DNA of 56,635 bases, counting the filler, from Dugesia japonica (lineage: Eukaryota), in assembly GCA_001938525.1 (NCBI GenBank). It is 5 parts of 5 records of this genome, joined end to end, with 100 filler letters (N's around TTAATTAATTAA, not from the genome) between each part and the next. Parts side by side here need not be neighbours in the genome. Positions count along the whole stretch, not along the records: positions 20,610 to 37,627 come from MQRL01606560.1; 4 more parts are not named here. One strand, given 5' to 3'. Below the pieces are notes generated by a model. The model had not been told where the DNA came from. It searched no databases and saw only the letters and a list, made by a program, of their open reading frames with translations. Below are positions 2,755-54,439 of the stretch, in pieces; the first letter of the stretch is position 1; every line of letters begins with the position of its first letter. A program made the position numbers and the translations under genes.

Positions 2755-4668
2755 TGACATATTTTCAAAACGATGTGATATTTCACAGCAATGGTATATT
2801 TTCAAAACGATTACACGAAAATTTTATTTTTAAAAAAAAATCATAATAAATTTATTAAAACAAAACTTAACAATAAATTCGAAAATAATCATGCGAATGA
2901 AATTTTGCAACGTAAAATTAACCGCAACGTAATATGTTTAGATGTTTTCATATTTTTTTCAATTAATAAAGATGTTACGTTGTGAGAATTTTAGGCCATC
3001 TTAACCATATCACTTTCATATCAAAACAGTGAAAATCAATAACTGCACGGTGGTATCTAGTGCAATATATAACTTGAGTCAGTTAATGCGATTACCTCTT
3101 CCGATTCCAACTTGTATATTAGACTATCATCAACGACAACTCCATCGAACTGAGATTTGTTGGGCGCTAATTTCTCGATAGTTATTTAAAGTGTCTTCTT
3201 AAAATGGTTCAACGCAAAATTCGTTTTAAATATGCCTGTAAAAGTAAAAATAAAACAATTTACAATTTTATTACCAGATTGACCAATGAATATTTAAGTT
3301 CTTTTTTTCAAATCATTGAATTAGAAGAAAAGAATAATCCAATTCTGATGTCGCATTAGTTGGCAATTCGATCTTCTAAATAGTGTTGATTGAATGTTTC
3401 TTAACAAACAGATATACAGAACGGGTTTCTCATCCTCCATCATAGCCAATCTATCTGTGATTTTGTATTTTGCTTTTTAATTTACAATTTACAACAGTAA
3501 TCTGATTCTCGTTGAAATTCTGTTACTGGCACTGTTTTGATCATATTTACGCGAAAATGATTTTTGCAGCTAAGAAAGCCGTTATTTATTTTATAGTGTC
3601 GAATTTCTCCACGTATTCTTGTCCTCTTTTCATTTTTTTTTGAAAATTTTAATTAGAATGTTTCTTTGAATTATTTAAACTTCTGCCATGAAAAAAAGTT
3701 TCCTTAAATAAAAAAAGAATCGGTACAGAATAATTTTATTTCAACCAAAAAACGTTCTAACAAAATTCTTCAACCATCTTTATTTTTTTGAAATAGCAAG
3801 GACATCCAATCAATATGGGCAGCAGGTATGAATTCATTATATATGCTATCAATTACTCCCAGTAAAGAATTATGTGTATATTCATCAGAATTATTGTTTG
3901 TTATCATGTGAATTCTTTTCGATAGCCTCTTGAGAGTGGAATACTTAATAATTTGGATGAATTTATGTATAACATCCAAGTATTGCATTTTTCCAAAACA
4001 ATGACATAACAAGGATATATTTCCAAAACGATGTCATATTGCACAACNATGGTAAATTTTCAAAATGATGACATGAAAATTTTATTTTTAAAAAAAATCA
4101 TCAAAAATATATTTTAAAAAAACTTAATCATACATTCGAAAATAATCATGCGAATGAACATTTGCATTCGTCTACGATCCTTAGCCTCCACGTCCTCGTA
4201 ATTCATTGTTAAAATTCTAAAATAACTAATAAATAAAATTCAAAAGTAATTTATAAATTTACTTTATTCATGGTTGAAATTCAACTTCTCCACATTTCTT
4301 TATACTTGTTTTCCACTGTAATCTAAAAAAATTAATAATAAGAAAACTAATAAATTATCTTTTTCGCTTCCATAATTCACTTTTCTTTGAAATTAATTTT
4401 GAAATTGTCATAAAATTTATCTATTTACCTTTTATGGTTTATCAAGTGTCCAATCATACTCGAGTATGTATATATTTAAAAGATAATATTATATTTAGAT
4501 TATTTCAAAATAAATTTAATTAACCGCAACGTAGTATGTTTAGATAATTTCATATTATTTTTCATTAATAAAGATATTACACGTTGAGAATTTTTTGGCC
4601 ATCTTAACCATACCACCTTCATATAAAAACAATGAAAATCAATAACTGCACAGATGTATCGAGTGCAA
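2755..4668. repeat. Two diverged copies of a ~300-bp dispersed repeat (about 2755-3066; 4015-4166 plus 4519-4668)
   Basis: Shared blocks TTCGAAAATAATCATGCGAATGAA and ATTAACCGCAACGTA...GGCCATCTTAACCATA...GAAAATCAATAACTGCAC; the second copy has ~350 bp of extra sequence between the blocks. Confidence 0.8.
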
Positions 4669-4889
4669 TTTCACTTTTACACTACCAATAATATATATCT
4701 CCTCTGATTTGATATTTTTTATGATATAGTGTTTCTGATTCTCTGTTGTTACGTAATTGTACTGTATTTTCTGTTTCAACTCAGGCGATAGGTTCTGTCA
4801 ATCTTGAAGTTTTAATAGGAGTGCATCCTTCAAACAAATATTTTTCATCTTGTGGAATAATAACTTGGCTTTGGGCGTATCTATGTTTA

Positions 4890-5390
4890 TGTGATATGTT
4901 TAATGTCACCGGTTTTAGAAAGCTCCTGACCTTTGCTACTTCTAATATTTCGTTTCTGTTTAATGATCAACGATATAAGCAAATTGACGGAGTTGCTATG
5001 GGTTCACCTCTTGCGCCTACTCTTGCTTCATTATTTCTTTCGAATATTAGAAAAGGATTGAGTTATTATTTGAATTGTTTACGGGAATTAAGCCATTATA
5101 AGCGTTATATGGGTGATATTTTTTGGTGTTTAGTAATCAATCTAATGTAGAATCTTTTCTGAATTATATGAATTCTTGATACTCGAATATAAAGTTCACA
5201 ACTGAAATGGAACGTAATGGTAAACTTCCTTTTCTTAATTTATTAATAGAATGGAAATCTGACTATTGAGACAGAAATCTATCGATAGCCAGCTGATACT
5301 GGTTTAAATACAACACCTGGTAGTTTCTGTGAATCTNNATATAAATTTAATATGATTAAAGGTTTAATATATAGATCTTGGACTCTCTTC
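4890..5390 (+). mobile_element. Penelope-like element reverse transcriptase fragment (decayed)
   Basis: FLFNDQRYKQIDGVAMGSPLAPTLASLFL, YKRYMGDIF (degenerate YxDD), then NIKFTTEMERNGKLPFL after a frameshift. Confidence 0.85.
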
Positions 5391-7639
5391 TTATTTTTCG
5401 AAGTCGATCTTGGCTTTAAAGATTTTAAAAATGGTTTGCTACCACCAGCGTCAGACACAAGAGAACGTATCCGAAATAGTTGAATGTGTTCTTGCAGGTT
5501 TTCTCCAAAATTAGTTGTTAAACGTTGGTAGATTCTAACATCTGAGTTTTATACTGAAAATACTTAGTGTTGTCTATTAGGAGAATAGAAAAGGCAAAAA
5601 AATTAATTTATTTAGCTGAATGGTTTTTTTTCTCCTACCTCGGCTCTTACAATTCTGTTGATTATACTCCTGTTGGTTATTTTTTCCTTTTACAAATTAC
5701 TGATTGGCCAACGGGTACGGCCTACGTAGTTGGTTTTATTAGGAGAATTTATCCATAAATGTTTCGATAATTAATTATCTATTTTCAGTCCACAAAATAT
5801 TTAGGTAATTATTTTTTTCTTTGTTTATTAATTTTCCTATATGAAAAATAATTGTAGGTAATTAAATTCCTCACTAGCTAATTAATTGTTGCTTGCTACA
5901 TGAAATGATTACTAGTAAAACTCGGTATAATTATTTCCCAGTCGAAATGGATAATTGTGGGTTATTATTTCTTCAGGCTTAGTAAAAATTACTAATTGTC
6001 GTCTCGGGAAATTTTTTATTCTTTGTTNTAATTGGTGGCTAAATTGCATGATAACTATTTGATTAGATTAGATTAATTAGATTGACTAGATTAAAGGAGT
6101 AAGTAGATAGTAGCGCATTTCCCAACTTTTTAAAGCAGTTATCGTGCACCCCCTACTTTTGTGACATTTTTTCTAAGATTTTTGGGATCAAATTTTTTTT
6201 CCTAAAAATTTGTATTTTTAATTTTTAAAATTTGTGTGTTTGTGTTGCCAAGGGTGTTTTTAAAAAGTAGGTCAAGTTGAGTTTGGGTGTGTATGTGAGT
6301 GTGTGTGTGCGTGAAAGAGTGAATTTGGACTCGAGGGAGAGCTGGAGATCGTGGAAATAATTTTTTTGTAGTTTTTAAGATTTGGTTGTGGTTGGACAAA
6401 AATTCGTTCTATACATTGTCTAAAGGACTTATGAGGTTGGATGGATGGATTTTGCTAGAAGTATGGTAGTGCACTGGCACAGGCGTTTGAGTTATCGTGG
6501 GAGTGTTTTTTGGGACTATATAGGTTTGTAGGGGGTGTTGAATTTGGATAGTCGATGGGTTATTGGAAAGGTAATGTGCTGGAGAATATTTTGGATGTCG
6601 ATTGTGACTTAATTTCTGATTTTTAGGGCTTGAATTTGATTGGTTGATATTTGTAAGTAGTATAAGTGTGTTAAAAAAATTTTCGGTAGGGGTAGAGTGG
6701 TATGGGTGGAAAGAGAATTAATTATCGGATTTTTTAGAATTTATTTGAAATTTTTCTGCCAGGCGGATGTGACGTAATATTGTTTTGAAATCTTTATTTT
6801 TGGTTAAAATGCTGTATTTTGCAAAAACGCGGATAATATTTTTACTCATGTAATGTGTTATCGACCCACCCCCCATTACTACTACTGTGTTGTGTGTAAG
6901 TTTATTTACGACCTACCTACTTACTATATAATAAGATGGGGGCTTGGTAATATCTAACGCGTAATGGTGTAATTGTGTAAAATATTTTAAAAATTAGTTA
7001 AATAAGTGGTAAAATAACAAAATTTTCTTGTTTTAATTAACAAATGTTGCCATTTTTATAAAATAAATAGGAGTCGCTACATATATTTGGTAAGCAATTA
7101 TGAAAATACAAGTTTTTAAATTTATAGTTTATTTGTTTAGATTTATTAACGGTTTCTTTCCGATTCAAGAGACTGTTCAGTTTAGGATAAGTCTTTAAAA
7201 CTGATTTAAGCTCTGAAGTAAACATAACAAGTTTACTAAAATATTGATTTGAGCTTGAAGTTTTATCATCTTTAAATTTGGCAATATTAGAATCATTTGT
7301 CTTGTGTTTAGACTTAGATGACATAATTCCAACATTTCTTTTATTTGAATGACTAGAACATGGCATAATGTTAAACTGAGAAATATTTTTTTCAATTAGT
7401 TCTTTATTTATAGAACTTTCTTTATTATTATTGTAATATTTACAACAATCTCGAATAAATCATCAATAACAAATGATTGAAATGCTTGTAGAATTTTCAT
7501 TCTCTTCATAGTAGTNGAATGTATTAATGCTGTAAAGAATGATTTACTTCTTTCTAAATTCATCTTTGATTTAAATAGATAAATAATACTTAGTTGTTTA
7601 TAACATTGTCAATACACATTGAAATAATAATCTTCCTGT

Positions 7640-9358: not shown

Positions 9359-9458
9359 NNNNNNNNNNNNNNNNNNNNNNNNNNNNNNNNNNNNNNNNNN
9401 NNTTAATTAATTAANNNNNNNNNNNNNNNNNNNNNNNNNNNNNNNNNNNNNNNNNNNN
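9359..9458. other. Artificial scaffold-joining spacer
   Basis: Exactly 44 N + TTAATTAATTAA (stops in all six frames) + 44 N. Confidence 0.97.
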
Positions 9459-11052: not shown

Positions 11053-12386
11053 TCACAAATTTAACAGCACAACACAAGGATCCTCAATAAACGATTTTAT
11101 CTTTCTGAGAAAGAGAACAGCCTCGCGCCCATCAATCAATCGGTGATCGTATGTGAGTGCCAAATACATCATCGGCCGGATCTCAACTTTCCCATCGATC
11201 GCAACTGGGCGCTGTTGAGTAGCGTGTATTCCGAGAATCGCTGATTGCGGGGGATTGATGATCGGAGTTCCCATCAAACTACCGAAAACTCCACCGTTGC
11301 TAATGGTGAAAGTGCCACCGTCCATATCTTCAATCGCCAACTGGCCCAATCTAGCGCGTTCTCCCAATTCGAATATTCCTTTCTCAATTTCTGCGAATCC
11401 CATATTTTGAACATCTCTCAAAACCGGCACCACCAAACCTTTCGGAGTGGCAACCGCGACGCTGATATCGATATAATCCCGATACACAATGTCACCACTA
11501 TCGATCACAGCATTAACTACCGGTTGATCCTGCAGCGCTAGGGCTGCTCCTTTGAGAAAAGCCGACATAAATCCTAATTTTACTCCGTGTTTCTTCTGAA
11601 ATGCTTCTTGATATTTTTTTCTTAAGTTTATGATGCAACTCATGTCACATTCATTAAATGTTGTCAACATCGCACACGTATTTTGTGCGTTTTTCAGTCT
11701 TTCTGCAATTCTAATTCGCATTCTATTCATTTTTACTCTTTGTTCACCGCGAGAGCCAGAAATATTCGAATCTGATGGAACAATTCGTAATTGCGGAGGA
11801 GGAAATATTTCTTTGATTAATTTATCATTTTGTAATGCTGGACTGCCTGTAAATTTTACTTCTTTCTTTTCTGTTACAGTTTCAGGTTTTTTCTCAATTT
11901 TCACTTCACTAATCACTTCTTTTTTTGGTTCAGTAACAGAGCCAAGTGAAATCTTTACTAAATCCTGATTGGCAATTACTTTGTCTCCATCTGCAACTAG
12001 TAATTCCAAAATCGTTCCATTAAATGGTGAATGAATTGGAATTGCAGTTTTATCAGTTTCTATTTCACCAACTACTTCATCAACAGACACAGTGTCGCCG
12101 GGTTTTTTAGACCATCTTACATCGCCTTCTGTAACTGATTCGGCAAAAGGTGGTGTTTTAATTATTTTATTTTCCTCAAATAGAAAAGAACTAATTCCGA
12201 TTTCTCTTTTAATTGTAAATATTCTGAAGATTAACGTTGAAAATATATCAAAATTATTCAATGCTATTACTTATTACGATTTCCATTAAATTGAGCAGCT
12301 TTATTACCAAAATTATTTATTAACACTTTATTAAATCGAAAATGAAGATTAATAGCTTTGATATTAAAAATTTTATATAAATTCAT
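11053..12386 (-). CDS. DLST: Dihydrolipoamide succinyltransferase (E2 of 2-oxoglutarate dehydrogenase), 2 exons (12386-12271, 12223-11053), ~428 aa
   Basis: Lipoyl motif [33 protein letters not shown], catalytic DHRLIDG; a 47-bp GTAATA..TTCAG intron (12270-12224) joins an N-terminal presequence-like exon in frame. Confidence 0.95.
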
Positions 12387-20509: not shown

Positions 20510-20609
20510 NNNNNNNNNNNNNNNNNNNNNNNNNNNNNNNNNNNNNNNNNNNNTTAATTAATTAANNNNNNNNNNNNNNNNNNNNNNNNNNNNNNNNNNN
20601 NNNNNNNNN
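20510..20609. other. Artificial scaffold-joining spacer
   Basis: 44N + TTAATTAATTAA + 44N. Confidence 0.97.
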
Positions 20610-20610
20610 T

Positions 20611-21960
20611 AAATTGGATGTAAAAATAGCTGCATATTTTAACAATAAAATTGATTTTATTTATCATGAAATTTTGAGACAAGTAGACAGAATATATCAA
20701 GAAACAATGATGAGAAATTGTAAAATTAAACGAGAATTATTGAGGGCAAAAATGCAATGGTAGTCACAAATCCGGATCTGGTAGCACCACTCCTGTTCGA
20801 GGAAAGAGGAACATTTGGAAGAATAGTGGGAGAAACTNTAGTGAGTTTTCAATGTAAACCAGTAGCCGTTACGCTTACAGATCATGAGAAATGTACAAAT
20901 GAATTACCAGTAATATATAAGGGAGAAAAAGTGTTTCTGCTTCCCATAACAAGGATTTTAACAGATAAACATTATCAACCAAAAAGGATTGAAAAATTTA
21001 GTAACATTCTTGATCCTAAATACAAAATAAATGAAGAGGTATGCATAACAGTGTCGGATAGAAAGACAGCACCAACTCCACTAATGATGGAAATAATAGA
21101 GCTTGGTAGAACAACAGAATTAGAAAGGATTGATAATATAGAAAAGCGTGGTATTTATACGATTAACGATATTGAGAAGGCGCGAAAACATATGCTGTTC
21201 CCAATACAAAGAGAGAAAATAATATCGATTGTTAAGTAATAATAAGAGAGAGATAAGTAATGATATCAAAATATGTATTTCACAACAATGCTATGTGTAT
21301 ATATATATATATATATATATTGGGATCAGGCATAGTAATTACCCAATTGACCTTGTTAGTAATTATGTCATCAAACAGTCAAACATATCAGATTTTTCAG
21401 GCATANNNNNNNNNNNNNNNNNNNNNNNNNNNNNNNNNNNNNNNNNNNNNNNNNNCATACATGCAAACATACAATTACATAACATAAAATATTTAATTAT
21501 CATTATTATAATTAATCACATCTTACATCAATAATGGTCGATAAAGTAGCAAGAGGGAGTAATGGAGACGACTTGAATTTTGAATCACTATTGCACGCAG
21601 ATCATTTTAAAAGGGCAATGCGTAATTTCGTAGATAGAATTTTGGGGGGAATGCAATGATTTGGTAATATATTCTCATGTATCCTATTTGGATGGTATGT
21701 TTTAACATTTTTTAAATTAGCGGGTCATCAAATAATTTCTCTAAGACAATTACATTCAGTTTTTGGTTACACATGGAAATTAGGAGCATGTTTCTGCCCA
21801 TTTATTGCAAAACACATGATTGTGCAAAACCACAGTAAAAAAAATAAAAAACTTGGAAAAGCATCGAGGCGTATATACAATAAACATGGATGATGAGCAA
21901 GAGTTAAAAAAATTAAATAATGATAGATCATCAGAAACGGAATATAAACCATATAAATAA
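20611..21960 (+). pseudogene. Chuvirus/gB-type (class III) fusion glycoprotein, C-terminal half
   Basis: AYFNNKIDFIYHEILRQVDRIYQETMMRNCKIKRELL; GRIVGET.VSFQCKPVAV..HEKCTNELPVIYKGEKVFLLPITRIL; GIYTINDIEKARKHMLFP; after the insertion FGNIFSCILFGWYVLTFFKL..LHSVFGYTWKLGACF (membrane anchor). The motif order matches chuvirus-type G as I recall it. Confidence 0.8.
21230..21527. mobile_element. Nested solo-LTR-like insertion in the glycoprotein gene
   Basis: Begins TGTTAAG, ends CTTACA, flanked by TCGAT/TCAAT (5-bp TSD, one mismatch); removing it restores ...KIISIMVDKVARG in frame. Confidence 0.75.
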
Positions 21961-22027
21961 GAAAATATCGAATTAGAACAGAAAAATAGATGATTCAACA
22001 CAATATAAATATCAAAAGAATTACTCA

Positions 22028-22670
22028 ATGTCAGTCATAGATTCAGACAATAATAGACCCACAGCCGATATTATAATAAATGGAATTAGTATACCTTCGT
22101 TGATAGATACAGGAGCAGTATGCTCAATAATAAAAGAGTCATGGTTAAATAAAGCTCAAAGACAGAAAATAAAAAATTACAAACCAGAAGGTATAAAATC
22201 ATTTACAGGTCACATAATAAAAACAAAAGGCATAATTGAATGTACGGTCTCAATTGGACAAGAAATTGTTACACATCCATTTAGAGTAATGGAAGATGAA
22301 ACTCAGAATTGTATTTTAGGTATGGATTTTCTGGCAAGATTAAAAGGATACGTCATTGATTTGCAAGATAGCACACTAAAAATGGTAACATCATTACCAG
22401 TGNNNNNNNNNNNNNNNNNNNNNNNNGCAACAGAGTTAATAACAGTGGAACGCTGTAGTGAATGTATAATACCTGTACATACAGAAGTACAAAATAACAA
22501 ATCATAAATTTTTGAACCAAATGAGAAATTGATAGAGAAAGATAATTTATCAATAATGCCCGGATGTGTAGAACCAAGAAAAGGAATAATATCAATGAGA
22601 ATAGCCAACTGTAATAATTACGAGGTGATACTTAAAAAAACACAAAATTAGGAAAATTATTTGAAAATGG
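22028..22670 (+). pseudogene. Retroviral-type aspartic protease followed by a dUTPase-like spacer domain
   Basis: SLIDTGAVCSII and CILGMDFL; then IIPVHTE..LSIMPGCV..ISMRIANCNNYEVILKK.TKLGKL. Confidence 0.85.
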
Positions 22671-22957
22671 AAACGAATATGAAATATATGAAATTGTATT
22701 TGAAGAACAACAAAAGAAAGTGAACCTATAGAAGCACAATAAACAAACCCCGAATATAAAATCAACAAAAAAGGGTTGTCAACTAAATAAGCATGAACTA
22801 TTTGAGCTTATAATGAAAAAACAAGAGAAAATAGACAAAATAATTGACAAAGAACTAATAAAGCAGAAACAAACAAAATATTATGAGAAAGGAAAAATAA
22901 CAAATAAAGATCTCACAATAAATCAACGACAACAACTACAGAAATTATTAGACAAAT

Positions 22958-24265
22958 ATGAGGATGCATTCANNNAAACATGAATTTGATATGGGAGGAA
23001 CAAACATTATAAAACATATAATCGATACAGGTAATGCAAGACCAATAAAACAACGACCATATGTAGCACCATATGTGTTAAGACCGGGAATCAAAAGACA
23101 AGTAGCGGAACAAAAAGCGAATGGAATCATACGAGATAGTTTTTCTCAATGGGCATCGCCAATAGTAACAGTTAAAAAGAAAGACGATGAGATTGGAATG
23201 TGTATTGATTATAGAAAGCTTAATGAAGTCACACAAAAAGATACACACCCATTTCCAAAGATACATGAACAATTCAATAAGTTAATGAATGCAAAATACT
23301 TTGCAAGTTTAGATGCTAATAAAGGTTACAATGTAACCCCAGTACAAGAAGAGGATCGAGAGAAAACAGCATTCTGTACTGATGATGGGTTATATGAATT
23401 TATCAGATTACCGTTTGGGCTATGCAATGCACCAGCTACATTCCAGAGATTAATGAACACAGTATTAACAGGTGTTGAACATGTAGTTGTATACATGGAT
23501 GATATACTCATAGCATCTGAAACATTTGAACAACATTTGATTAATATAGAAAATGTATTGTCCAGAATTAGAAAAGAAAATATTAAATTAAAACCCACAA
23601 AGTGTAAATGGGCAGAGGAAAGTGTTTTATTTCTGGGACATATTGTATCATCAAGAGGATTAGAACCAAATCCAGAAAAGGTAAAAGCGGTCCAAGATTT
23701 TCCAGTGCCAAAGAGTGTACAAAAATTACAAGGATTTAATGAATTAGTGGGATATTATCTTAGATTCATACAAGATTTTGCAAAAATATCAGCACCATTG
23801 GTAGAATTAACCAAATGTATGAAAACAAAAGGGGAAAGTAAAAATGTCATGATTGTAGAACAACTAGATGAAAAATCAAAGAAGCCTCAGAAGAAATGGG
23901 TCCCAAAACAACAAGAAGCCTTTAATACATTAAAACAACGATTGCTAACAGCTCCAATATTAAGATATCCTGATTTTACGAAGCAATTCATAGTAATGAC
24001 GGATGCAAGTGGATATGCTATGGGAGCAGCGCTCGGTCAGGAAGACGAGAAAAATAAAGATTATGTAATTGCATATGCCAGTAGAATGTTAAAAGGAGCA
24101 GAGACAAGGTATTCAACAATTGAAAAAGAATGTTTAGCCATCATATTCGCGTTAAAACAATTTAGACCATTTATATATGGAACAGAAATAATGATTCGAA
24201 CAGATCATAAACCATTAGAGGGCCTATGGAAAAATAAAGATACATCCATTAGAATACTGAAGTAG
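22958..24265 (+). pseudogene. Gypsy reverse transcriptase + RNase H
   Basis: SQWASPIVTVKKKD, CIDYRKLN, LPFGLCNAPATFQRLM, YMDD, TDASGYAMGAAL, YSTIEKECLAI, TDHKPL. Confidence 0.97.
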
Positions 24266-24268
24266 GCA

Positions 24269-25652
24269 ATGAAAATCCAAGATATGAGCATACGTATTAT
24301 ATACAAGCCAGGTAGAGCAAATAAAAATGCCGATGCATTATCAAGAATTCCGGAAATAAATATATTAGAAATGATGTCAATTGTTATGACAGGGGCAAAC
24401 CCAAAAACGTTTCTGGAAGAGCAAAATAAAGATAAACGAATCCAAGAGATTAAAAGGATGATGCTTCAAGAAAAAATTACCAAATATAAAATGTATAAAA
24501 ATCTGCTTATGTACAATAATTTAGGGGAAAATCTGATGGTTGTACCAGATTCTCTAAAACAGTTATTATTATTACAATATCATGATGGAGCGCTCGGAGG
24601 TCACCTGTCTAGTAGAAAAACCACGTCAAGATTAATACAAAAATACTATTGGGATAATATAAAAGAGGATGTAAAGAAGTGGTGTAAAGCATGTAGTATC
24701 TGTGCTACAAGAAAAAATACAGGAACAAAAACCAAAGTTCCATTACAACCAATGCCAATACCCAGCTCACCAATGGAAACATGTGCAATGGACTTTTTGT
24801 GAAAATTACCAACAACTATTAAAGGTAATAAGCATATATTAGTATTCAATGATTATTTTACAAAGTGGGCAGAGGCATTTCCTACAAATAATGAAACGGT
24901 AGATACTGTAGCAAAGTTATTAGTTGAAAAGATAATATATAAATATGGAGCGCCAAGAAAGTTGCTATCAAATAGGGGAAAGAGTTTCCTCAATGAAGTC
25001 ATACGAGTAACAAATATGTTTGATATTAAGAAAATAAATACAACGGTTTATCACCCACAAACTGATGGGTTAGTTGAAAGATTTAACAGTACATTATGTA
25101 ATAGACTGGCAGTTTTCGTAAATAAACATCAAAATGATTGGAATCTATTTATTAAGCCAACATTGTTCATACATAATACAACTGAAAACGAAGCCACGGG
25201 ATATTCACCATTTTATCTTATGTACCTCAGACAAAATCATATGCTAATAGATATAACATTTTGAGCCAATTGTGTCACAATATATGGATAATCCAGATTA
25301 CATTACAAAAATGCAAGAAAGACTACAAGAGGTATACAAACAAGTAAAATTCAATCTAAAAGTAAAATTCAAACAGGAACAATACAAAGACTATTTTGAC
25401 AAAAAAGCTAAAGAACATAATTTTAAAGTAGGAGATAAAGTGAGGATAAAAACAACAGTTACACAAAAAGGGTTAACAAATAAACTAGCCAGANCTTATA
25501 AAGGTCCATATNAAGTAGTAAAAACAACTCCTACAAATTTACACGTAATAAAAAACAAAAAAGATGATCCCATGATTGTGGCAGTTAACCGATGCAAAGT
25601 AGCAGAAGCAGAAATTGAACCTGAAAAACAACACAAATTTAACCTTCGACCA
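24269..25652 (+). pseudogene. Gypsy integrase (H2C2, DDE core, GPY/F)
   Basis: HDGALGGH..CKACSIC; AMDF; DYFTKWAEAFP; SNRG (D changed to N); HPQTDGLVERFN; YKGPY; ends FNLRP; internal stops at 24800 and 25262. Confidence 0.95.
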
Positions 25653-25667
25653 GGATCACAAAATGAA

Positions 25668-26613
25668 TTACCACTTTTTGCACTAACTTTAGTGACATTA
25701 ATAACAGTAAGTGCAGCAAAACTAGAAAAAGAACAAAGTTTTGGTATTATAGAAAGAGTAATATATCCTAATAGTATCGTACTGAAGACATCGAATAATA
25801 TAACAATTGCTGCAACAATTAAAGAGCAAGTAATCGAATATGTCATAACAAATGAATACATCACGAGAAAGAGATATGTTTTTAAAGAAATATCAATAAA
25901 ATTTAGCAAGGGNNNNNNNNNNNNNNNNNNNNNNNNNNNNNNNNNNNNNNNNNNNNNNNNNNTAAAGAAATATCAATAAAATTTAGCAAGGGAAAAGGCC
26001 AGATAGAGATAAAAGGACTAGAAGCTGACACAACATGTAGAATTTGGATACAATATAGAATGAACGGAGTCAAATTATTGAGACAGTATATATTTACCAC
26101 GTTACCAACGAAACTGATTATACCGCAAAGACAGTTAATGAATCCTTCAAAGAAACAGGAAAAGTCGAGTACAACCAAATTACAAATAAAGACAAAATTT
26201 GTGACTATCCCTACAAGACAAGAGAAGTTAATTCCAACCAAAGAAAAAATAGAAACAATTATTCATCACAATACAAGAATATATAATAATTTTACAGTGA
26301 AAACGACAACGTGTGCGATAACAAACAAAAATCCAAGGAGAGATAGACAGACTCGGATTAATAGCATAAATTTAGATCATCAACAATTGCGACATAAAAT
26401 TCTACAGAGGTGGGTTACAACCACAATAAAACCATTTGACCTAAAATATTATATCATCCTTTTTCAATATTGGGAATAATTGCATAACTCATCCTCCTCG
26501 CTTTCATAATTACATTAACCCAAATACTTAAGCGATATAGGTGGAAGAGGCAGCGTTATCGGCGTCGCAATGCCCAACAAATTCCGAATTATGTCCGATG
26601 GACATTGGTCTGA
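25668..26613 (+). pseudogene. Type-I membrane protein in frame after integrase: signal peptide, Fn3-like domain, Thr/Lys-rich stalk, TM helix, basic tail
   Basis: LPLFALTLVTLITVSA; IEIKGLEADTTCRIWIQY..YIFTTLP; then, after a frameshift, FSILGIIA*LILLAFIITLTQILKRYRWKRQRYRRR; the duplicated ends of the gap at 25913-25962 collapse to an in-frame join. Confidence 0.65.
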
Positions 26614-26756
26614 GCACCCTATACAAAATTTGTTAAAATTCTATATCATTATTTATATATATTTTTCTTTATATTATAAGCTACTAATACATGTGGCAGT
26701 ATATAGGACTAGTCAGTCCTTAAAATCAAAAATTAATTATTACATTTTTTTTAGAA

Positions 26757-28926
26757 ATAACACTTCAAAAAAAGATATCAGAAACAAGCCAGATCAATCA
26801 ATACATTATAATATATAACAGACAAATCACAAAATACCATTCCTTTACATATTACATAATGCAGTCAAAACAGCACGTTACACACATTCAACAATCGAAT
26901 AATAATATACAGAAAACACATCAATACAAGCAAGCAGAACATAACATAACAAGAAAAGATAACAAAAATAGCGAATTAACACAGTCAATGCACAATAAAT
27001 CTACACACTCGGCAAACATTCCTTCATCCTCATCCTTAGTCACAAAAGGTGTCGCGCATTTTTATAACCATATACAAAGTTTTGTATTCAAAGATAAAGA
27101 TAGTGAACCTAGGATAGAAGTTTTTAATGGTGTAAATACAATCCCGAATGTCTTAAAGAACAACACTTTTGATAAAGACATCATTGTGATAAGATTTCAG
27201 AAAGCTCAGAGATACTCACTACAACAATTTATAGGATATATAGAAATAGAGGAAGATCCAAAAGAAGCACTATTAAATGGCAAACGATTACTTAAAGAAA
27301 TTAGATTACATGTTACAAAAACTCCTATTAGATTCTCGTAGAAAAAAAGAGATATACATATGCTGGCAAACAACACACTGATATTAGAGGGAAAAATAGA
27401 TCCAGGAGTAAATAAAATAAAAGTTGCAATACAGGATATTCCAGCCGTTCTTTGTGTAGAGTTAATTTATCATGATCGTATTTCTGCACCTTTTTCTACA
27501 TATACTGCTATAAAAGGGCATTGCGTGGTAATTTATATAGATCTGATTAACCATACATCGTTCCTCAAATATGCAATCTTAACAGAAAATGATATAGAAC
27601 AATTAATAGTATATGTAGATATGATAACAGTCAAGGATTCATATTTTAATTTGCAAGTGGTAGAGTTGACTATATTAAATAATAAAGGAGAGATTATATT
27701 GGATGAAACCCTATGTCTACGAGAAAGGATAAAGCATTTTGACACGCCAAGTACAGGGTATACCCATGAAAAGATAAAGAAATGTAAAGATGCATATCCT
27801 ATAGTTCTGAAAGCACGGCAGTTATTGTATGGGAAAATACTAGTCGGTTTTGAATTAGGAAATAAACTAACGAGTTTGCACATTAACCACAGACATGTTA
27901 TTGGTATCAGAGATCTTGCGGAAGACATATGGCGTAAGATGTATACTCCGAATGTAAAGAAGTTGAAATTGATCAACNTTATGGAAGCAGTATTTAAACC
28001 CATAAGGCAAGATAGGGTCATCAGAGATATGTTGAAAAACAGCGAGAGAAAAAGCGCAGGAATCGACAGCAAAACGAATAACATTCATAAAGATTACATA
28101 CAAACAAATAATTACTCAACAACCATGGCACGATTCTATATATCCTGGTAATAACCCGGTTATGAAAAGTATAGAAAATAATGCTGCAATATTGCAAGAA
28201 GTCATGACTAGAGAAAAGGAGAAACCAGACAGTGTAATATGGATATTAGATTCTGAACAAGATTCAGATATGGAAGAGAATGGAGAAGAGACAGATAGAA
28301 GCACAGATAGTCAATCTAATATGAGTAGTGACATAAATATAGAGTGGGACGAGGAAGACTTACCAGAAGAACTTAGACCGCATAACGACACTGGTGAGCA
28401 GCAGAGATTGATTGATGACATAATGCGACAAAGTCCTAAAGAGATACAAACAGATATGGACGCATCTGAGGATGACGAAATCCCAGAACGGACAATGTCA
28501 CAGAGAGAACAAAAGGAGTCTGGAAGTGAAACTGAATACTGGTCAGGTGAAGAAGTGGAAGATCTTAGGTTGAATCAAGTAAGAGGAGATTGCGAGTTGA
28601 TACCGTATCATACGGATAGCGACAGTGATGACCTCAGTCCTGAACCACAAATTGATATATACGAACCTGGTACGGACACAATCAATTTGAATAGAGCCCT
28701 CAAAATAGATAAGTTCGATGGAAATATTAACAATGCAAAAATAACTTTGAAAAGAATATCGGGTAAAGATATGCAATTACAGTTTGGAAAGAAACACATT
28801 AGATTAACAACCATTAAGGAGGATAGTAAGAAGACATTAAAATTTATTGTTGAAAATGTTTTGCTTAACACCATCGCTGTCACGAAAAAAGGTGCCGTAC
28901 TTACACTTTCAGTTAACAATGATTAA
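26757..28926 (+). pseudogene. ~720-codon accessory ORF with a REX4/ISG20-like DEDDh exonuclease-fold domain (~27600-28110) and an acidic linker
   Basis: IVYVDMITV..VVELTILNNKGEIILDE..IKHFDTPSTGYT..QLLYGKILVGFELGNKLTSLHINH..IRDLA follows the REX4 pattern; in-frame TAG at 27339 and a frameshift near 28050 link the three predicted ORFs. Confidence 0.7.
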
Positions 28927-29009
28927 CATAAAAAAGAAACTATCTATATTTATCTATTGTTATTATAGTATCTCTCTCTAACCCTATCATTAATATTGTA
29001 TATTTTAGA

Positions 29010-30324
29010 ATGAATCCCAGTTATCAATCACAACGATTGTTTTGTGTTACAGTCAGCACTTATAACTTTATATGAGAAACACCGGAACTTAACAAACCCT
29101 TACAATTATTGTTGGTCAGACATTGCACCAGTTACGTTACTTATCACAGATAAACCTATGTGTCCTTTATGTTACGACCAACCTATTTTACCTCGTATAG
29201 CACCATGTGGCCACTTCTTTTGTTTTGCTTGTATAACTGAATATTTTAATATAACCCACTCCGATAATTTACTTTGTCCTTCTTGAAGATCTCAACAAAT
29301 TTATGATACTAAATTACGTCGTGCAAATTTCTATTATGTTAAAAAACCTTCTGTTGGACAAATTGTCTCACTAAGCCTCATGGTTAAAATGCCGTGTAAC
29401 AATAGTACGCGCTTTGCCCATCTCACCACTTTTCTTGAACAAAAAGACATTCCTGATTGTTACGATCCTGTCAGCGAATTCCAAGACATCTCCACCCAGC
29501 ATGATTCCTTAACAATGAAACAAATTAACAATGACATTCGGACAGTCAGTTATGGTCAGTTTTCGAAAAAACAAAAACATCAGTTAATAAAAATATTGAA
29601 GGCTGAAAGAACACATTTTACGTTCCACATTAAAATATTAGATAAGCTTCAGTATGAGAAGACATTCACAGAAAAAACCATGGATGCTGCCAAATTTAAC
29701 CTTTTAGTACAGCATACTACCTTGCAAATTACTATCTTTGTGTATCAGTCTGCCGCATTCCATCGAAAATTTCTCAATGAAAAACAGAAGACACGATTTC
29801 TTAATAATCAGCCGGACAGTACCCCGTTTTGCATAAGTGGATATATTACAACAATAGATTCGATTATAGTTGATCATGAGAACCTATAAAATTTTCAATA
29901 CCATTTTCTACCCGACCATACAAAAATCCGATCGCTGTCTATCACTATTAATACGATATCTATCCCTAAATCGCTTGGCCCATTAAGTTATTTGTATACT
30001 CACGCTAAAATAACGAGAATGGCAATAGAAAAACGCAATCCAGAATTACAAGCCATTGCGAGTGAAAGCAGAGCTAGAATAGGCCAGCCTGCCAGAATAC
30101 TTACCCGTCAATCTAAAGAAAGTGCTATAGATATTTTCTCCCGAAGTCCTTCTGTTTCCCCATCCTCCATAAATCCAGAAGCCGAATTCCCGGTATGTAT
30201 TTTCAATGAACCTTGTTCCAATAATACATTTTCACCGTATCACGATATTGTCCCTATTTCGCGTTTATCCAAAGATGACGGAGCATCTATTTCGGAGAGG
30301 GAACGTTTGTTGAGGTTTGACTGA
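29010..30324 (+). pseudogene. RNF10/Mag2-like C3HC4 RING E3 ubiquitin ligase, intronless, decayed
   Basis: CPLC..PRIAPCGHFFCFACI..CPS* RING; also RNF10-like flanks (W.DIAPVTL, VGQIVSLSLM, FVYQS..KFL, TPFCISGYITTID, YHFLPDHT); ORFs 29044, 29380 and 29992 share one frame, separated by single stops. Confidence 0.75.
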
Positions 30325-30627
30325 ATGTACAGGCATATACAAGNNNNNNNNNNNNNNNNNNNNNNNNNNNNNNNNNNNNNNNNNNNNNNNNNNNNNNNNN
30401 NNNNNNNNNNNNNNNNNNNNNNNNNNNNNNNNNNNNNNNNNNNNNNNNNNNNNNNNNNNNNNNNNNNNNNNNNNNNNNNNNNNNNNNNNNNNNNNNNNNC
30501 TGACATTATATTTTTATTTTAAATTGACATTATATTTTATTTTAATTATTTTATATGTTGAACTTGAAAATTTTTACCAAATTGAACTTTATTATTATCT
30601 AACAATTTTTCTTGGACTTTGTTATTA

Positions 30628-30722: not shown

Positions 30723-31683
30723 GTAAATCTTTTTGATTTTTATAGAATAACAATTACTAGGTCAATGCATGAGGCCTAGTGTAAAATTGACTATAAATAC
30801 TGACGTATGTCAGTTTATTTTCAGACNNNNNNNNNNNNNNNNNNNNNNNNNNNNNNNNNNNNNNNNNNNNNNNNNNNNNNNNNNNNNNNNNNNNATATAT
30901 CCCTAATAAATATTTTAAAGGTGATTATTTATTTCATTTGTATAAGGAACTATACAATATATAACTCTATTTATATTTTTAGTAAATTATCATCTATATA
31001 ATATTTGTAGTTACATACGTTGCATAATAATATTTGAAAAGATAAAACATACACAATCATATAACTATTTTAATACGAACCATAAACTTTTGTTGAGTTA
31101 AATACCCAACAATTGCCATAATGTGAAGTCGCGTTCTTTGAGTCCGATACTTTGGTCTCGAAGCCTTGCATTTTTTTTGAAGTTATGGAATCTCGTGTTG
31201 CAATGCGTTTGTGTAACGCACGCCATTTTTTCATAAGATAGTTGGTTGTGGTATTTGATGAAGTAGATTTAAATGTTGACACTGAATTGAGAAATATTAT
31301 ATTATCAATGTTCACAAGTAACACAATATATATTTAATTCATTTTGAATTAGTTTAATTTTATAATGGTGATTTCTGATTTTATTAACTCGGACAAGACA
31401 TTCTTATTATCTCTTAGGTGGTTCTTAAAAATAAAATACGAAGATATTTCCACAGAGAACCTTTTATTGTACAGATACACATGATTTTAATGATCATTAA
31501 TACTGTTAAACGGCAGTTTCGGTGTGATTTATTTCTTCGTCCAATGCGGGTAGTATTTGCTGTAGTACAATTTCAATTCTTGCCGTCAATCTTTCACATT
31601 GCATTAAGTATTTATCGATTTCAATAGTTTTTATAATTACAATTATTGTGAGAATAATTGTTGGACTTAACCATTGATCGGAT

Positions 31684-31793
31684 TTGAGATTTCATTAAAA
31701 TAAGATAAAGCTTCAAAACAAAATTTATTTGAACTTTTTTACAAATAAATTTTGTTTTGATCGAAGCTTTATCTTATTTTAATGAGATTTCAA
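31684..31793. repeat. ~50-bp-arm inverted repeat (hairpin)
   Basis: Left arm 31684-31731, 10-nt loop, right arm 31742-31793; two mismatches and a 4-nt bulge. Confidence 0.9.
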
Positions 31794-32445: not shown

Positions 32446-33353
32446 TTGTCACGCCCGATCAAGTTAAGAGAAGCCGAAGAGAGTATGAGCAACGACGGTT
32501 AGAAGTTTCAGACCAATGCAGCAAATGATATGCTTAATTTGTGGGACTCACTAGGGTTGAAAGATACCGATACCGATCCATGATTGATTATTCAGGATAA
32601 GCTGAAACAGAAGGATGAGTATATTCGCACATTGAAAGAAAAGATAACCAGACAGGAGCGACAACATGTAGATAAATTGGAACAACTCGATAATTTGCAG
32701 AAACGCATGAATAATCTGGAACAACTATATGATTAACATCTGACAACTCTCGTGATAACGCAAGAGGAATGTGAAAAGGAATTAGTAAGGTTGTTTATCC
32801 TGACTATGGAAGTCTCCAAGCATCAACAACATTTAATAAAGACAACGAGAGCCACTCAACTCGAATCCGAGGAATGCACAAAATTATCCGAAAATTTATC
32901 CACAAAGATCGAGACGACGCTCCAACAGATACTTCTTCCTCTGGATGATGGCATTATTACTATCGAAACAACAATGTGACTGTGTAAATATTCAAGTGTT
33001 TACCAATGGATTAACTGGATACTTTTGATTCAGTGTATAATGCCAGGAAAATAACGGCCAATACATCTCTGACGGATTTGCGTAAGAAATGGAGCTTCTT
33101 AGACAGGAAACTTCAAAATGAAATAACGGAGCTCTAGCACAAAAACAGCATGCTCCAAGAAAAGAACACTCAGCTAAAGGAACATGATCTTGCTCTATCG
33201 CAAACGTGCCGCATGATAGCTGATATCAATAAGACATAAACCAATCGAAAAAACATACTGATAGTAATGATGCGAACCATAACACAGACATCGAGGAAGG
33301 AGAAGGAGATTCTGAAGGAAATAGCAAAGGAAGTAATCGATTTGGATGAATAA
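32446..33353 (+). pseudogene. ~300-codon coiled-coil pseudo-ORF
   Basis: G*KFQTNAANDMLNLWDSLGL..LKEKITRQERQHVDKLEQLDNLQKRMNNLEQ..LVITQEECEKELVRLF; several stops and one frameshift. Confidence 0.6.
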
Positions 33354-34893
33354 TGAATTGTTTTTATAAATAGAAATCTTATTATCCAAAGATGTTCAAG
33401 TTTTGTCACTGTGGAGATTCATAACAAGGGTGAAATAAAACAGTAACTATAGCCAAGTAAATCGACATTGAAACTGAGACTGGTTACCTCATAGTCCTGC
33501 TTTGTCCAATTTCTGCCAGCTTCGGGGTATCTACAACTAGCAGACGCCAACACAAAGAAGAACAATATCAGTAAGAACAATTGCGAAGAAGAAAAAAAAC
33601 GTCTATCAAAAGGAAGAAGATAATAACATAAAAAACTTCGAAGCCAAACCCTATTTATAATAAATTTTACTTATCATGAGCGTTGTTATGTTAATTCTTA
33701 CCCTCGTAACTTATCAAATTATTTTATTGTTGTCATTATTATTGGGGTTTCCTAACATTCCGCATAATAAATTAATAATTGATATGAACTATAGGATATA
33801 TAAGTACCAGTTTCCGAGGAATCGGTTATTAGTTTTAATCTCTTTTTATGTGGTAAATTATTAGGTTTCTAGCTTATAAATAATGACGTTCTTTCTACTA
33901 CCATTTACTATAAAATAAATTAGCAAAAAATATTATTTCCACTACAACGAATAATTCAATAATTAATCAAAAGGATGGCCACAGGAACTCCAAAAACTTC
34001 CAGAAAAGTTAACATAATAAGTTCAAATTTGACTTCTAAGCAGCTGAGTACTCTAGATAATTAATCAAAATAAAATTATCCCTTAACGATTCTTAATTTA
34101 GCGACTAACTCAGCAAAGTTGATAATTTTCATAAATTACAATTAAAACACCACCAACCAAAATAAGAAAAATCAATAAAAATCAATTATTAAGTGACGGA
34201 TAAGTTTATTTAAAGTAATACAAAGAATTTGCAATGTACTCCAAGTATTTCCCTTAAAAAATAATATTCACAGAAGCAGGAAATTAGATCTTGATAAATT
34301 TGTTATATATTATGTGGATAATCAGTTGTTATTTGTCATACCTTTTTATTATCGATAAAATATACTTCATAATAAAATTATCCACACTACATACACATAC
34401 ACCCCAAGTGCCCATACTAGAACATTTTTTTATTGGTGACTCTCTTGGGCCTACAAATTCTTCTTCAAATAAAACTAATAAATAAAATAATAATAATATT
34501 CAAATTAAAATAAGTAGAGGTATAAATTATTAGAAAAATTTTAAAATACGTTATTTAAGGTACTCCTGTACATCCCAGTTAATTTTTCAAATTATTAATC
34601 GCTTGTATTTCTTCTGTTACCTTGTTTCGGATTTTTAATTATTCATTGTCTTTAATGTTACCTTAAAATTATTGCTTATAAAAATATCGACAAAGAAAAT
34701 TAAAAGGACACAATTTAGATTTCTTTAGATAAAGAAACTATTGAGAATGAAGATACATAACAATTTATAAACATTGTTTAATTAATTACTTTCAAAGAAA
34801 ATTTAATTCTCATCACTAGATTTTTTATAAAAATAAAACTACATTACTATTATAAACTACATATTTTCATTTCAGCAAAATATGTTTATTTCC

Positions 34894-35545
34894 TTAATCA
34901 ATCATAGTCATGTTGGTTTCAGGTGGATCAACTTCCATCTGCATAAGATCAGCATTTCTGGGAATTCCAATAATCACCGCAATAATTATTGTAGAAATGT
35001 AAAAAATGCAAAACAATCTATCCAACACCAAGCCTAAAGTTCTCCATTCCATTGTTAATTGGTTTTTTCGTTGAGCTTCTTTTTGTTTTCCAATATATTT
35101 TCGTACGTAACGAGAAATTTCCATAACATCTTTCTCTATTGAACTAGTACCACCACACACCATAATAGGAGAATCTTGAGAATTTGATACTCCTTGATTT
35201 TGTGCACCATTAATACCAATACTGGGTTTACTGTGAGACACAGATCTATGTCCATTGTTACGAGAATATTTTTGATTACCATTCTAAATGAAAAATATAA
35301 TAAATATAAAACTTAGAGTTTTTCTTTCTAAAATTTACGTTTTGAGGTAAAGATATTTCTTCTACTTGAGGAACATCAGACGCCATAAACTTATTACTAA
35401 CCAATTCAGGTACGTGTAATTTATGTTGTAATCTACCAGCTGGAGATTGAGTGACGAATATATTCCGATTACTAGGCGGTTGTGGAGGTGGAAGTGGAAT
35501 AAATTGACTAACAAATAGAAGACGTCCGATATTATCAATCATTAT
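34894..35545 (-). CDS. Nicotinic acetylcholine receptor (Cys-loop) subunit, last two exons (35545-35339, 35283-34894)
   Basis: MA-M4 signature MEWRTLGLVLDRLFCIFYISTIIIAVIIGIP; 55-bp GTAAAT..TTTAG phase-0 intron; upstream exons not found in the scaffold. Confidence 0.85.
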
Positions 35546-35705
35546 CTAGAATGGAAATAAAAATATTATTTTGCTCAAATACATGATTTCTTGATAGAAT
35601 TCCTTGATGACTATTTAAAATCTAAAAAATGGTTTTGATTTTGCACCCAGAATTTCGAAATTTACAATTAAAATATTAAATAATTTTTAAAAGATAAAGC
35701 AGTTT

Positions 35706-37627: not shown

Positions 37628-37727
37628 NNNNNNNNNNNNNNNNNNNNNNNNNNNNNNNNNNNNNNNNNNNNTTAATTAATTAANNNNNNNNNNNNNNNNN
37701 NNNNNNNNNNNNNNNNNNNNNNNNNNN
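37628..37727. other. Artificial scaffold-joining spacer
   Basis: 44N + TTAATTAATTAA + 44N. Confidence 0.97.
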
Positions 37728-44862: not shown

Positions 44863-45882
44863 TTATTCCATTATTTCACGGATTTCATCCTCTGAAATAT
44901 TGTCTAATAAACTGGTTTTTGAATTGTTATTAGTATTTAAAATACATTTACCAGAAATGGAAATTACTTCATTTCTGGCGTTATTGGATGTCATAATTGT
45001 CGGTATTTTGTCTGATACAGATTTAGAAATTTTATTTGATGGCATTTTATTACTAGCAGTATTACATGATACAGTGGATTTGTAACAATTTTCATCTTCT
45101 GATGAATCCTCAAGTTCACTCTCTTGATAAAGAGCATATTCATGACACAAATCCTCTACATTGTCGTGAGCTTCAAGGAATTCCGATTCTTCCATTCCTT
45201 CTCCAACATACCAATGAAGAAAAGCTGATCGACGATACATTGCTAAAAACTGACTGTGAACCCTTTCAAACATGTGACGTATAGATGTATTATTGGCAAT
45301 AAATGTGGCCGACACTCGAAATCCTCTTGGAGGAATATCACAAACTGCAGTTTTTACATTTGACGGAATCCAGTCTACATACTGAGATTGATGTTTGTTT
45401 TGAACTTTTAACATATTTTCTTCAACTTCTTTCGTTGAAACTCGACCCCGAAATACTGTAGCAACTGTCAGATATTTTCCAAAAGCTGGATTACAATCTG
45501 TCATCATGTTTTTCTCTTGGAACATTTCATTAATTAACATATTTACGTTTACTTCGTTTTTATATTGGCTGTTTAAACGACTTGTTAAAGGTGCAAATCC
45601 TGGAATTAAAAAATGCAATCGAGGAAATGGAACCATGTTAACTGCTAACTTTCTTAAATCAGCATTTAACTGTCCAGGAAATCTTAAACATGTCGTAATA
45701 CCCGATACTGTATTTCCCAGTAAATGATTTAAATCTTCATATGTCGGATTACTTAAACAAAGTTTGTTTCGACATATTCTATACAACGCTTCATTATCAA
45801 TACAAAAAGTTTCATCAGAGAAGGAACAAAGATAGCTAGCAGCCAACGTGCAATTGTACGGTTCAACAACCGTTTCAGATAT
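44863..45882 (-). CDS. Divergent beta-tubulin, terminal exon, with a ~73-aa C-terminal extension
   Basis: [76 protein letters not shown]; phase-0 acceptor at 45882; upstream exons absent from the scaffold. Confidence 0.93.
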
Positions 45883-46199
45883 CTTAATGAGATAATGAAA
45901 TAATATAATTATAAATTCAAATAANNNNNNNNNNNNNNNNNNNNNNNNNNNNNNNNNNNNNNNNNNNNNNNNTAGTTGAGTTTGATTCAAAGATTGTCTT
46001 TTAAATAAATATATAATACTCTTATAATGGCGATAATAATTATTGGACTTCAATAAGTTTAAATATCAGAATGTTGTTTTTTTGTTGTTACTATTGCGAA
46101 TTTACGACAATAGTCTTCTTCGGGTATTTCAGTCGATTGGAATCGTCTATAATTTGTTTATAATGTCCACTATGTATAAAGTACACATATTGTACAAGC

Positions 46200-46299
46200 N
46201 NNNNNNNNNNNNNNNNNNNNNNNNNNNNNNNNNNNNNNNNNNNTTAATTAATTAANNNNNNNNNNNNNNNNNNNNNNNNNNNNNNNNNNNNNNNNNNNN
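46200..46299. other. Artificial scaffold-joining spacer
   Basis: 44N + TTAATTAATTAA + 44N. Confidence 0.97.
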
Positions 46300-52671: not shown

Positions 52672-54439
52672 NNNNNNNNNNNNNNNNNNNNNNNNNNNNN
52701 NNNNNNNNNNNNNNNNNNNNNNNNNNNNNNNNNNNNNNNNNNNNNNNNNNNNNNNNNNNNNNNNNNNNNNNNNNNNNNNNNNNNNNNNNNNNNNNNNNNN
52801 NNNNNNNNNNNNNNNNNNNNNNNNNNNNNNNNNNNNNNNNNNNNNNNNNNNNNNNNNNNNTCATGTTTGTATTAAGCAAGATTCTGTTTGTTATCATGTT
52901 GTTCTTAGTATTGTTTTATTTACTCAGTTTCATTCTGAAAAATCTCACCAACGATCTGCAACTGTTAGAATATAATTAAAATTTTACCTAGCTAAAATAA
53001 ATATCTTATTGTAATTCGTAATTATACTGTAATATTTAGATAACCAAAGAACAAATATTATTGTAAATCAGTTCAATCAATAACTAAATTCTTATCTATT
53101 ATCAAAAATAAATTAAACTTGAAACCATATTCAAAGTTCTTCAAAACGATTGAATATTTGTATTTAGAAATTCATCAGCCGTATTCAGAAAAACAAAAAC
53201 TTACGATGACAGTAACTTTCTCATTAATATCGTTAGTTTCAATCTATCAACGAAATCGTTTCCCGTACGACTGTTTCTTTTTCCAAATTTCAATCTTATT
53301 TATTGTGATTTTATTTTTATAGAAATATTTAGAAATCAAAATTATTGGTTATGATGAAGACAATTTTTCCAATGAGATCATTTTTAAATATTCGAAATTG
53401 GTTTGGATTTCTAAACGAAAATATGGATTCTGCGACAAATCATTTCATTCTAAGTTAGTTCATATTTATAATTTTGGTGGCTTTATTTTATTTTCATTTT
53501 TTTTAATACTTTGAGGGTTTTTTTTACATAGTTTGATAGTTAATTTAAATGAAATTAATTTATTAAAATTATTTTACATTTATAATTATTATTAGAATAA
53601 TTGTTTGACTTAAGCATTGATTGCATTTTTAACTATTTATTAATATGGAAAGGATAGAAATTTTCATAAAAATGATCACCAAAGCAAATATCTGTTAATA
53701 GTAACTATAACAATTCCAAATAAATTTCCAATTAAATCTTCATTTCTAATGAATTATTTATATATCAAATTCTAAATGAATGTACAATTTGTTCGCAATC
53801 AGTGTTGTGCATGGTTTCCCACGAATGATTGCAGTATTTTTAACAAATGCGGCAGATCATTTTCTATTTAATATTACAGGTGGTTCTCATTTGGTTGTAT
53901 AGTTTTTTTCTATGGATATGGAAAATACAATCTTTCAAATGTTTTAGAATATTACAAACTAAAAAAGGATTATTATGATTGATCCCAGTTATAATCAGTA
54001 CCTACTTTGGATGATTAATTTGACAATCACCAAAATGTCACTGAAGTCAATTTAAACTGATTATTAAAATTTATTCAGTGCCATAAATGATGCCTGTAAC
54101 AATTGCTTATATTGTTGCCTCGATGGGAACAATCAAGACATAATAAACATAACTTCAATAAATGTTTCATGATGTTACNNNNNNNNNNNNNNNNNNNNNN
54201 NNNNNNNNNNNNNNNNNNNNNNNNNNNNNNNNNNNNNNNNNNNNNNNNNNNNNNNNNNNNNNNNNNNNNNNNNNNNNNNNNNNNNNNNNNNNNNNNNNNN
54301 NNNNNNNAGGAGTCACCAACATTGTCGAGAGAACCAGTCTTATGACGGCAGGATAAATTATAGGACCGTTTGCCCAAGTAAACCTAGACTGTCTATCAAT
54401 CAACAGAATAAAGATTTTTATTTCTATAAGGCAACATTT

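Follow-up and report, generated by a model that had tools for sequence, protein, structure and literature searches.

The RING gene at positions 29010 to 30324 of the window, i.e., the whole 56,635-nucleotide stretch of Dugesia japonica DNA analyzed here, is interpreted as a broken accessory gene of an envelope-bearing Gypsy element, captured from RNF10/Mag2, whose intact form is predicted to ubiquitinate the 40S ribosomal subunit to the element's advantage, a reading that we hold with about even confidence. Its parts differ in strength: the identity of the gene as an element-borne, selected RNF10 derivative is held with high confidence, and a ribosomal substrate of the intact form is predicted with a confidence that stands midway between belief and disbelief.

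The window is AT-rich and gappy, with scattered host genes, and holds on its plus strand a decayed retroelement extending from 20730 to 30324, in which the RING gene is the last recognisable open reading frame (ORF) (Table 1). By the order of its domain matches, this is an env-protease-reverse transcriptase-RNase H-integrase Gypsy element with the layout of Burro and of flatworm errantiviruses. No gag-like Pfam match was found among the 106 frames scanned, the element starting at the N spacer 20510-20609, and no LTR pair is visible within the window, where gaps cut both element ends (20510-20609 and 30344-30499). The integrase reads in frame into a hydrophobic segment and a further extension (25600-26479). 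Close to the 3' end, a depth peak at 30258-30340, with approximately ten times the depth of the rest of the RING gene, occurs along with partial poly-A reads from more distant copies; together with a nearby purine run, it could mark a conserved 3' signal. The purine run itself (30294-30303) is not claimed as a polypurine tract or LTR start, as it may be coding and the depth peak starts upstream of it.

Table 1. Features of the retroelement and of its RING gene, in window coordinates.
Feature	Coordinates	Strand	Evidence
Class III (mononegavirus/gB-type) envelope fragments, upstream of protease	20730..21893	+	PF24664 E 6.6e-26 (20730-21236), 4.3e-05 (21660-21890)
Retroviral-type aspartic protease	21977..22507	+	PF13975 E 2e-11
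Reverse transcriptase and RNase H, Gypsy order	22952..24265	+	PF00078 E 6.1e-31, PF17919 E 2.8e-37
Integrase in pieces (zinc finger, core, C-terminus)	24266..26479	+	PF17921, PF00665, PF18697
ORF piece, no Pfam match	26724..27341	+	Pfam scan
DEDD-type exonuclease-like ORF, weak	27342..28151	+	Sole PDB match SDN1 E 0.14; no Pfam match
Acidic ORF, no Pfam match, directly before RING gene	28036..28926	+	Pfam scan
T-rich spacer, 83 bp	28927..29009	+	Sequence
Compact RNF10/Mag2-like gene, broken	29010..30324	+	Frame analysis, profile searches
C3HC4 RING, end broken by first stop	29161..29286	+	PF00097 E 7e-07
Cys/His tail motif	30196..30246	+	Compact family only; pattern drawn after viewing the alignment
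N gap masking element 3' end	30344..30499		Sequence

Regarding the surrounding DNA, the N spacers at 9359-9458, 20510-20609, 37628-37727 and 46200-46299 (100 nt with a 12-nt core) are artefacts. Downstream of the gap at 30344-30499, a multi-copy, decayed, coiled-coil-like ORF occupies 32450-33350, and a short MITE-like repeat with inverted ends lies at 31629-31790, with a second copy at 53572-53628 and a depth of ~776,000 in DNA run X1. Host sequences, on the minus strand, include a Piezo exon (451-669), a 2-oxoacid dehydrogenase E2 gene in one long frame (11053-12270), a ligand-gated channel exon with a 55-nt intron supported by RNA (34897-35547), and a tubulin gene with a long C-terminal extension (44863-46065).

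A preliminary description of this DNA had reported an intronless ORF starting 83 bp after the previous one, with RNF10-type motifs on both sides of a RING. Translation of the window places all of these motifs in a single frame, 29014-30324, and the distance is exact, as the upstream stop ends at 28926 and an ATG stands at 29010; the gene is also intronless, in that its RNF10 alignment is collinear within one frame and needs no intron. The ORF, however, is not open: the ATG at 29010 lies in a frame different from that of the RING and meets a stop after 21 codons, and the RING frame contains two stops, at 29284-29286 (inside the RING) and 29887-29889. The copy at 29010-30324 is unable to make a full protein, and all searches with the RING gene were carried out with its read-through translation, with X in place of stops (hereafter the query). 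Moreover, its base make-up (33% A) is unlike that of the upstream ORFs (40-45% A), which fits a separately acquired module.

We then turned to the ancestry of the gene. A phmmer search of 1.84 billion representatives returned 356 matches with E 0.001 as threshold. Of the best 150, most span residues 25-33 to ~125 and so extend beyond the RING on both sides; when the RING was masked, 137 of the 150 scored at least 10 bits on a profile built from 30 named animal RNF10s, so that the similarity is not that of generic RINGs. The names of the 20 clusters examined comprise seven RNF10/RING finger protein 10, nine unnamed proteins, three generic RING proteins and one unrelated plant repeat protein; this last one, P0003, was the top phmmer row and was rejected as a spurious match. 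A profile of 96 matches, the rows of which were picked by likeness to the query, with proteins of <400 aa and three multi-RING rows excluded, aligned with residues 27-393 of the query at 106 bits, and the named-RNF10 profile with residues 32-246 at 73.5 bits, versus at most 33 bits for three multi-RING rows.

The similarity continues past the RING, as had been proposed, since each of the quoted motifs aligns with a conserved RNF10 block and the RING-masked query outscores its shuffles. It reached 31.4 bits on the 96-match profile (best of 500 shuffles, 6.7), 35.2 bits on the profile of a compact family presented below (best of 500, 5.0) and 7.4 bits on the 30 named animal RNF10s (best of 500, 6.9, a thin margin). 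The query possesses the C3HC4 RING, the preceding Trp strand and the following G-x-x-[IV]-x-L-x-L-M strand, as well as the downstream core (YQ, P and HLP blocks) in collinear order, and residues W34, L122, Q245, P271 and H298 are at least 90% conserved among 27 aligned sequences. Taken piece by piece, residues 93-130 had a score that none of 500 shuffles reached; the pre-RING piece alone is weak (reached by 2/200, 12/500 and 30/500 shuffles), as is the C-terminal core alone (residues 230-345; 6/500 and 9/500), and the tail past residue 346 had no match on the named-RNF10 profile.

The query is ~20% identical to any RNF10. A word-based search with the read-through retrieved none of 2643 candidates at E 0.001, Pfam recognised the RING alone, leaving two post-RING pieces without a match, and a PDB search likewise matched only the RING, no solved RNF10 structure being found. 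Foldseek searches against viral (BFVD) and PDB structures matched the RING only, with no BFVD match reaching E 0.001, and no BFVD viral protein covering the RNF10 core was detected by fold; a wide fold search produced coiled-coil matches with Z <8. The two structure models (pLDDT 69.7 and 56.8) were built on our alignments and are not independent evidence. Overall, judged by these profile matches, the RING gene is an RNF10-derived member of the RNF10/Mag2 family, neither a generic RING nor an RNF10 orthologue; the label "RNF10-derived" rather than orthologue is used because both the long N-terminal region and the basic tail have been lost. One RNF10-like protein, P0090, is labelled archaeal in NCBI and probably represents eukaryotic DNA in a metagenome bin.

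Open relatives of the gene also exist. A compact-alignment search with 2871 candidates yielded seven open clusters of 404-446 aa, all from unannotated contigs, with pairwise identities of 44-70% and 107 invariant columns. All seven present the full C3HC4 pattern, the C-P-I-C-L motif and a Lys after the last Cys, and the C-P motif and all zinc ligands are invariant among them. Their post-RING parts scored 31-48 bits on the named-RNF10 profile (0/200 shuffles), and the family aligned with a six-row RNF10 alignment, which included the query, over 276 columns at probability 99.9. The RING starts around residue 50 in the query and in the compact forms P0005 and P0014, versus a median of 205 in cellular RNF10s; the basic hydrophobic tail found in 97 of 123 cellular RNF10s is present in none of nine compact forms; and the RING-helix residues W (114/123) and H (115/123) of cellular RNF10s are changed in the element forms. 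Moreover, the residue after the last RING Cys is basic in compact forms and mostly Tyr or Phe in cellular RNF10s; a basic "linchpin" residue at this position has a role in E2 priming.

The query itself is 20-25% identical to the compact family. On compact columns 135-240 it ranks first of 273 proteins (24.9 bits, the next one having 6.8), and it ranks low on other compact segments (199/273, and 215/273 on columns 240-345). The Cys/His tail pattern, which is post hoc, occurs in 12 of 290 proteins, i.e., the query and 11 compact ones; a tail profile misses the query. A third compact form, P0005, was noticed on a 7015-nt Logan contig (319 aa, ~20-25% identical to both the query and the compact family). 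The compact alignment gave no hit in either viral contigs or prokaryote genomes, and viral contigs were likewise without hits to P0014, to the L001 integrase and to the reverse transcriptase of the window.

Locus L001, the 6071-nt contig of P0014, is the one genomic context that the analysis covered among the seven compact clusters. It carries, on one strand, the C-terminus of a Gypsy integrase, a 445-aa RNF10-like ORF and a 717-aa ORF. Its integrase matches that of the window with 52% identity over 90 aa and 38% over 186 aa (E 2e-51), with no match at the DNA level, and its third ORF (3723-5876) resembles the exonuclease-like ORF of the window weakly (28% over 78 aa, E 3e-04). In both exonuclease-like ORFs, the first acidic motif looks degenerate when set against the DEDD consensus. 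The L001 integrase also runs on in frame into a hydrophobic segment, followed by a long extension (~740-1804 in all) that closes with a second hydrophobic stretch. The order of the accessory genes is swapped, the RNF10-like gene preceding the exonuclease-like one in L001 and following it in the window. On these protein matches, L001 is a diverged related element with both accessory genes.

The attribution of the gene to the element, put forward in the preliminary description, stands, given that the gene is multi-copy, that contigs of other copies join the RING gene to the upstream ORF and that an open relative lies behind the L001 integrase. The region that begins with the exonuclease-like ORF and closes with the RING gene was divided into 30 bins, each of which is covered in two DNA runs by contigs (1736 and 1605) that are mostly 85-99% alike; some, from other copies, span the spacer or link the acidic ORF with the RING gene. 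Summed contig depth, which is not copy number yet rules out a single copy, was 385-894 (X1) and 238-561 (X2) on the RING gene, versus 12-19 (X1) and 13-23 (X2) on the host exon region 34804-35600; this depth, together with the ~20% identity to any RNF10, largely refutes a single-copy processed pseudogene. Inside the second stop codon, most of the depth departs from the window copy (X1, 18 contigs; X2, 14), and length differences among other copies occur near the 5' end, so that the breaks look like the decay of some copies. Among poly-A/cDNA raw reads, the RING gene is almost absent (18 partial reads over 3 kb in X13, one in X12), and X16 raw reads contained none. This near-absence of RNA reads fits silencing and proves nothing; Burro elements are described as repressed by PIWI (PMC8532177). 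None of the data sets listed as containing the stretch is recorded as RNA, and a 586-nt contig of another copy was seen in run X9, its RNA nature being a guess.

Concerning the origin of the capture, trees were built from 62, 32, 30 and 22 hand-picked rows out of ~290 proteins. The query and the compact family join in all three trees holding both (85; 92/99; 92/60), with long-branch warnings and never starred; under LG the two form the sister group of flatworm RNF10s (95/95), under a mixture model they are unplaced, and the query without the compact family falls among non-animal rows. A flatworm donor was not rejected in AU tests (p 0.43 and 0.39), and a look-up by name yielded no planarian RNF10. 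The seven open relatives, and the segment and Cys/His tail that the query has in common with them, point to an old capture kept by selection. Therefore, of the initial proposal that the element had captured a host mRNA, RNF10 ancestry and carriage by the element hold, and a recent host mRNA is improbable, in view of the family of open relatives: the capture is likely old and selected, with trees that disagree on the donor.

The proposed course of events would start with an RNF10 gene reverse-transcribed into an ancestral element. The captured gene would then have been trimmed, losing its long N-terminal region as well as its basic tail and keeping the core, and presumably retained by selection. 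Translation would start at the gene's own ATG, with a subgenomic RNA as the probable template, and the intact RING would recruit an E2; the predicted ligase would mark uS3/uS5 on stalled 40S subunits, allowing the element to clear or redirect subunits stalled on its own long or multi-ORF RNAs, and would act outside the host control of RNF10 levels. When 40S subunits are blocked during scanning or early in elongation, RNF10 is described as marking their uS3/uS5, and the mark as driving the release and decay of these subunits (PMC11604940, PMC13075771). The very long polyprotein mRNA invoked in the preliminary description is borrowed from Burro and would hold here by analogy, the element in the window lacking its 5' half. 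Since the RING with its C-P-I-C-L motif and the core are kept, and a basic residue follows the last Cys, an active ligase is likelier than a decoy. That the core has been retained in full favours the old substrate; the changed RING-helix residues and the ~20% identity argue equally well for a new target. The fullest form of the proposal, in which an env-bearing retrotransposon lineage has long carried a trimmed RNF10 that, free of host regulation, ubiquitinates the 40S subunit, remains tentative, at somewhat less than even confidence.

The main rival to action on the 40S subunit is a gene of the same origin with a new target, namely an active ligase re-aimed at a host defence protein (e.g., PIWI or a silencing factor) instead of ribosomes. 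Very long branches, replaced RING-helix residues and the new Cys/His tail are in agreement with it, viral RING ligases have been re-aimed similarly, and Burro elements are described as carrying other ubiquitin and apoptosis modules (PMC6431247) and as held down by PIWI (PMC8532177). Nevertheless, the entire RNF10 core is kept in all seven open relatives, which would be costly if E2 recruitment alone mattered, and we consider such re-targeting rather unlikely. The kept core, with the N- and C-terminal regions lost, would also suit a decoy that takes the place of RNF10 on stalled 40S subunits and leaves them unmarked, so that ribosomes on element RNA are protected from disassembly and 18S decay, and herpesvirus deubiquitinases are reported to oppose ribosome quality control (PMC10721647); the invariance of the zinc ligands and of the E2-facing C-P-I-C-L and C-P motifs in the seven open relatives speaks against a protein that does not mark, making a decoy quite improbable.

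Two further explanations dispense with a function altogether. The gene could be a passenger, i.e., functionless host sequence copied along, or there could be two unrelated look-alike captures: the window copy is broken at three places, the query is only 20-25% identical to the compact family, and gene order differs between the window and L001. It is hard to reconcile either possibility with seven clusters that share 44-70% identity and 107 invariant columns and have kept frames of 404-446 codons open, with a compact-family segment in the query on which cellular RNF10s do not score, or with the fact that most depth of other copies departs from the window copy inside the second stop codon, and we judge this explanation very improbable. 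A processed pseudogene of the host RNF10 beside a decayed element would account for the lack of an intron, the deviant base make-up and the absence of a visible 3' LTR in the window; it is largely refuted by the multi-copy contigs, 85-99% alike throughout and bridging the spacer and upstream ORF in other copies, by the RNF10-like gene behind the related L001 integrase, and by the distance of the sequence from flatworm RNF10s, leaving it hardly any probability.

A captured and selected RNF10 derivative acting on the 40S subunit is the reading that we carry forward, at about even odds for the action on 40S. Titles and abstract openings in the literature gave no report of an element-borne RNF10, a RING label in Burro figures or Repbase being possible, and no parasite encoding an RNF10 ligase itself was found in the same kind of literature search or in the BFVD viral fold search; viruses are described as countering ribosome quality control with deubiquitinases (PMC10721647). 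The element type is thus a known one, and its selected, RNF10-derived gene has apparently not been reported. If the reading is true, an enzyme that writes the uS3 mark would be known from a mobile element or virus for the first time, and the ribosome-binding core would be marked out by a minimal RNF10 of natural origin. If the capture is old and selected, translation surveillance would be one of the fronts on which retroelements and their hosts are in conflict. In addition, the compact family may show the indispensable part of RNF10, which is useful as no solved RNF10 structure was found, and the open compact proteins offer natural material for a direct uS3 assay.

When compared with known systems, the predicted product is like viral RING E3 ligases (herpesvirus ICP0 and giant-virus RING proteins) in being a parasite-encoded C3HC4 ligase, and unlike them in that their BFVD fold matches stop at the RING. 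With RNF10 of animals and Mag2 of yeast, described as the uS3 mono-ubiquitin ligase (PMC11604940, PMC13075771), it shares the C3HC4 RING, its flanks and a downstream core, collinear over ~350 residues. It differs from these cellular proteins in its ~20% identity, in the position of the RING near residue 50 (median 205), in the changed RING helix, in the added Cys/His tail and absent basic hydrophobic tail, and in its multi-copy element location, ligase activity being predicted only.

The carrier was compared with Burro elements and errantiviruses by layout and descriptions. An env ahead of the protease is presented as a hallmark of planarian Burro elements (PMC6431247), and the same arrangement is described in GAG-ENV-POL errantiviruses of flatworms, nematodes and bryozoans (PMC13524379). 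As in the giant Burro/GYPSM1 elements and gB-type errantiviruses, a mononegavirus-like env is followed by protease, reverse transcriptase, RNase H and integrase, and the element is multi-copy and has additional host-derived modules. These modules differ: Burro elements, as far as the available account goes, carry AIR1, Smc, MATH, BIR, ankyrin, BCL2, SUMO-like, dUTPase and midasin-like modules, and no RNF10-like ORF behind pol (PMC6431247). Neither RING nor RNF appears in the accessible text and seven supplements of the errantivirus study (PMC13524379), nor does any RING or ubiquitin term in the accessible part of the work on the bdelloid LTR elements Vesta and Juno (PMC5408684). The latter are described as carrying a captured DEDDy exonuclease or GDSL ORF3 (PMC5408684), and the element in the window is like them in that enzyme genes, a DEDD-type exonuclease among them, have been captured behind pol.
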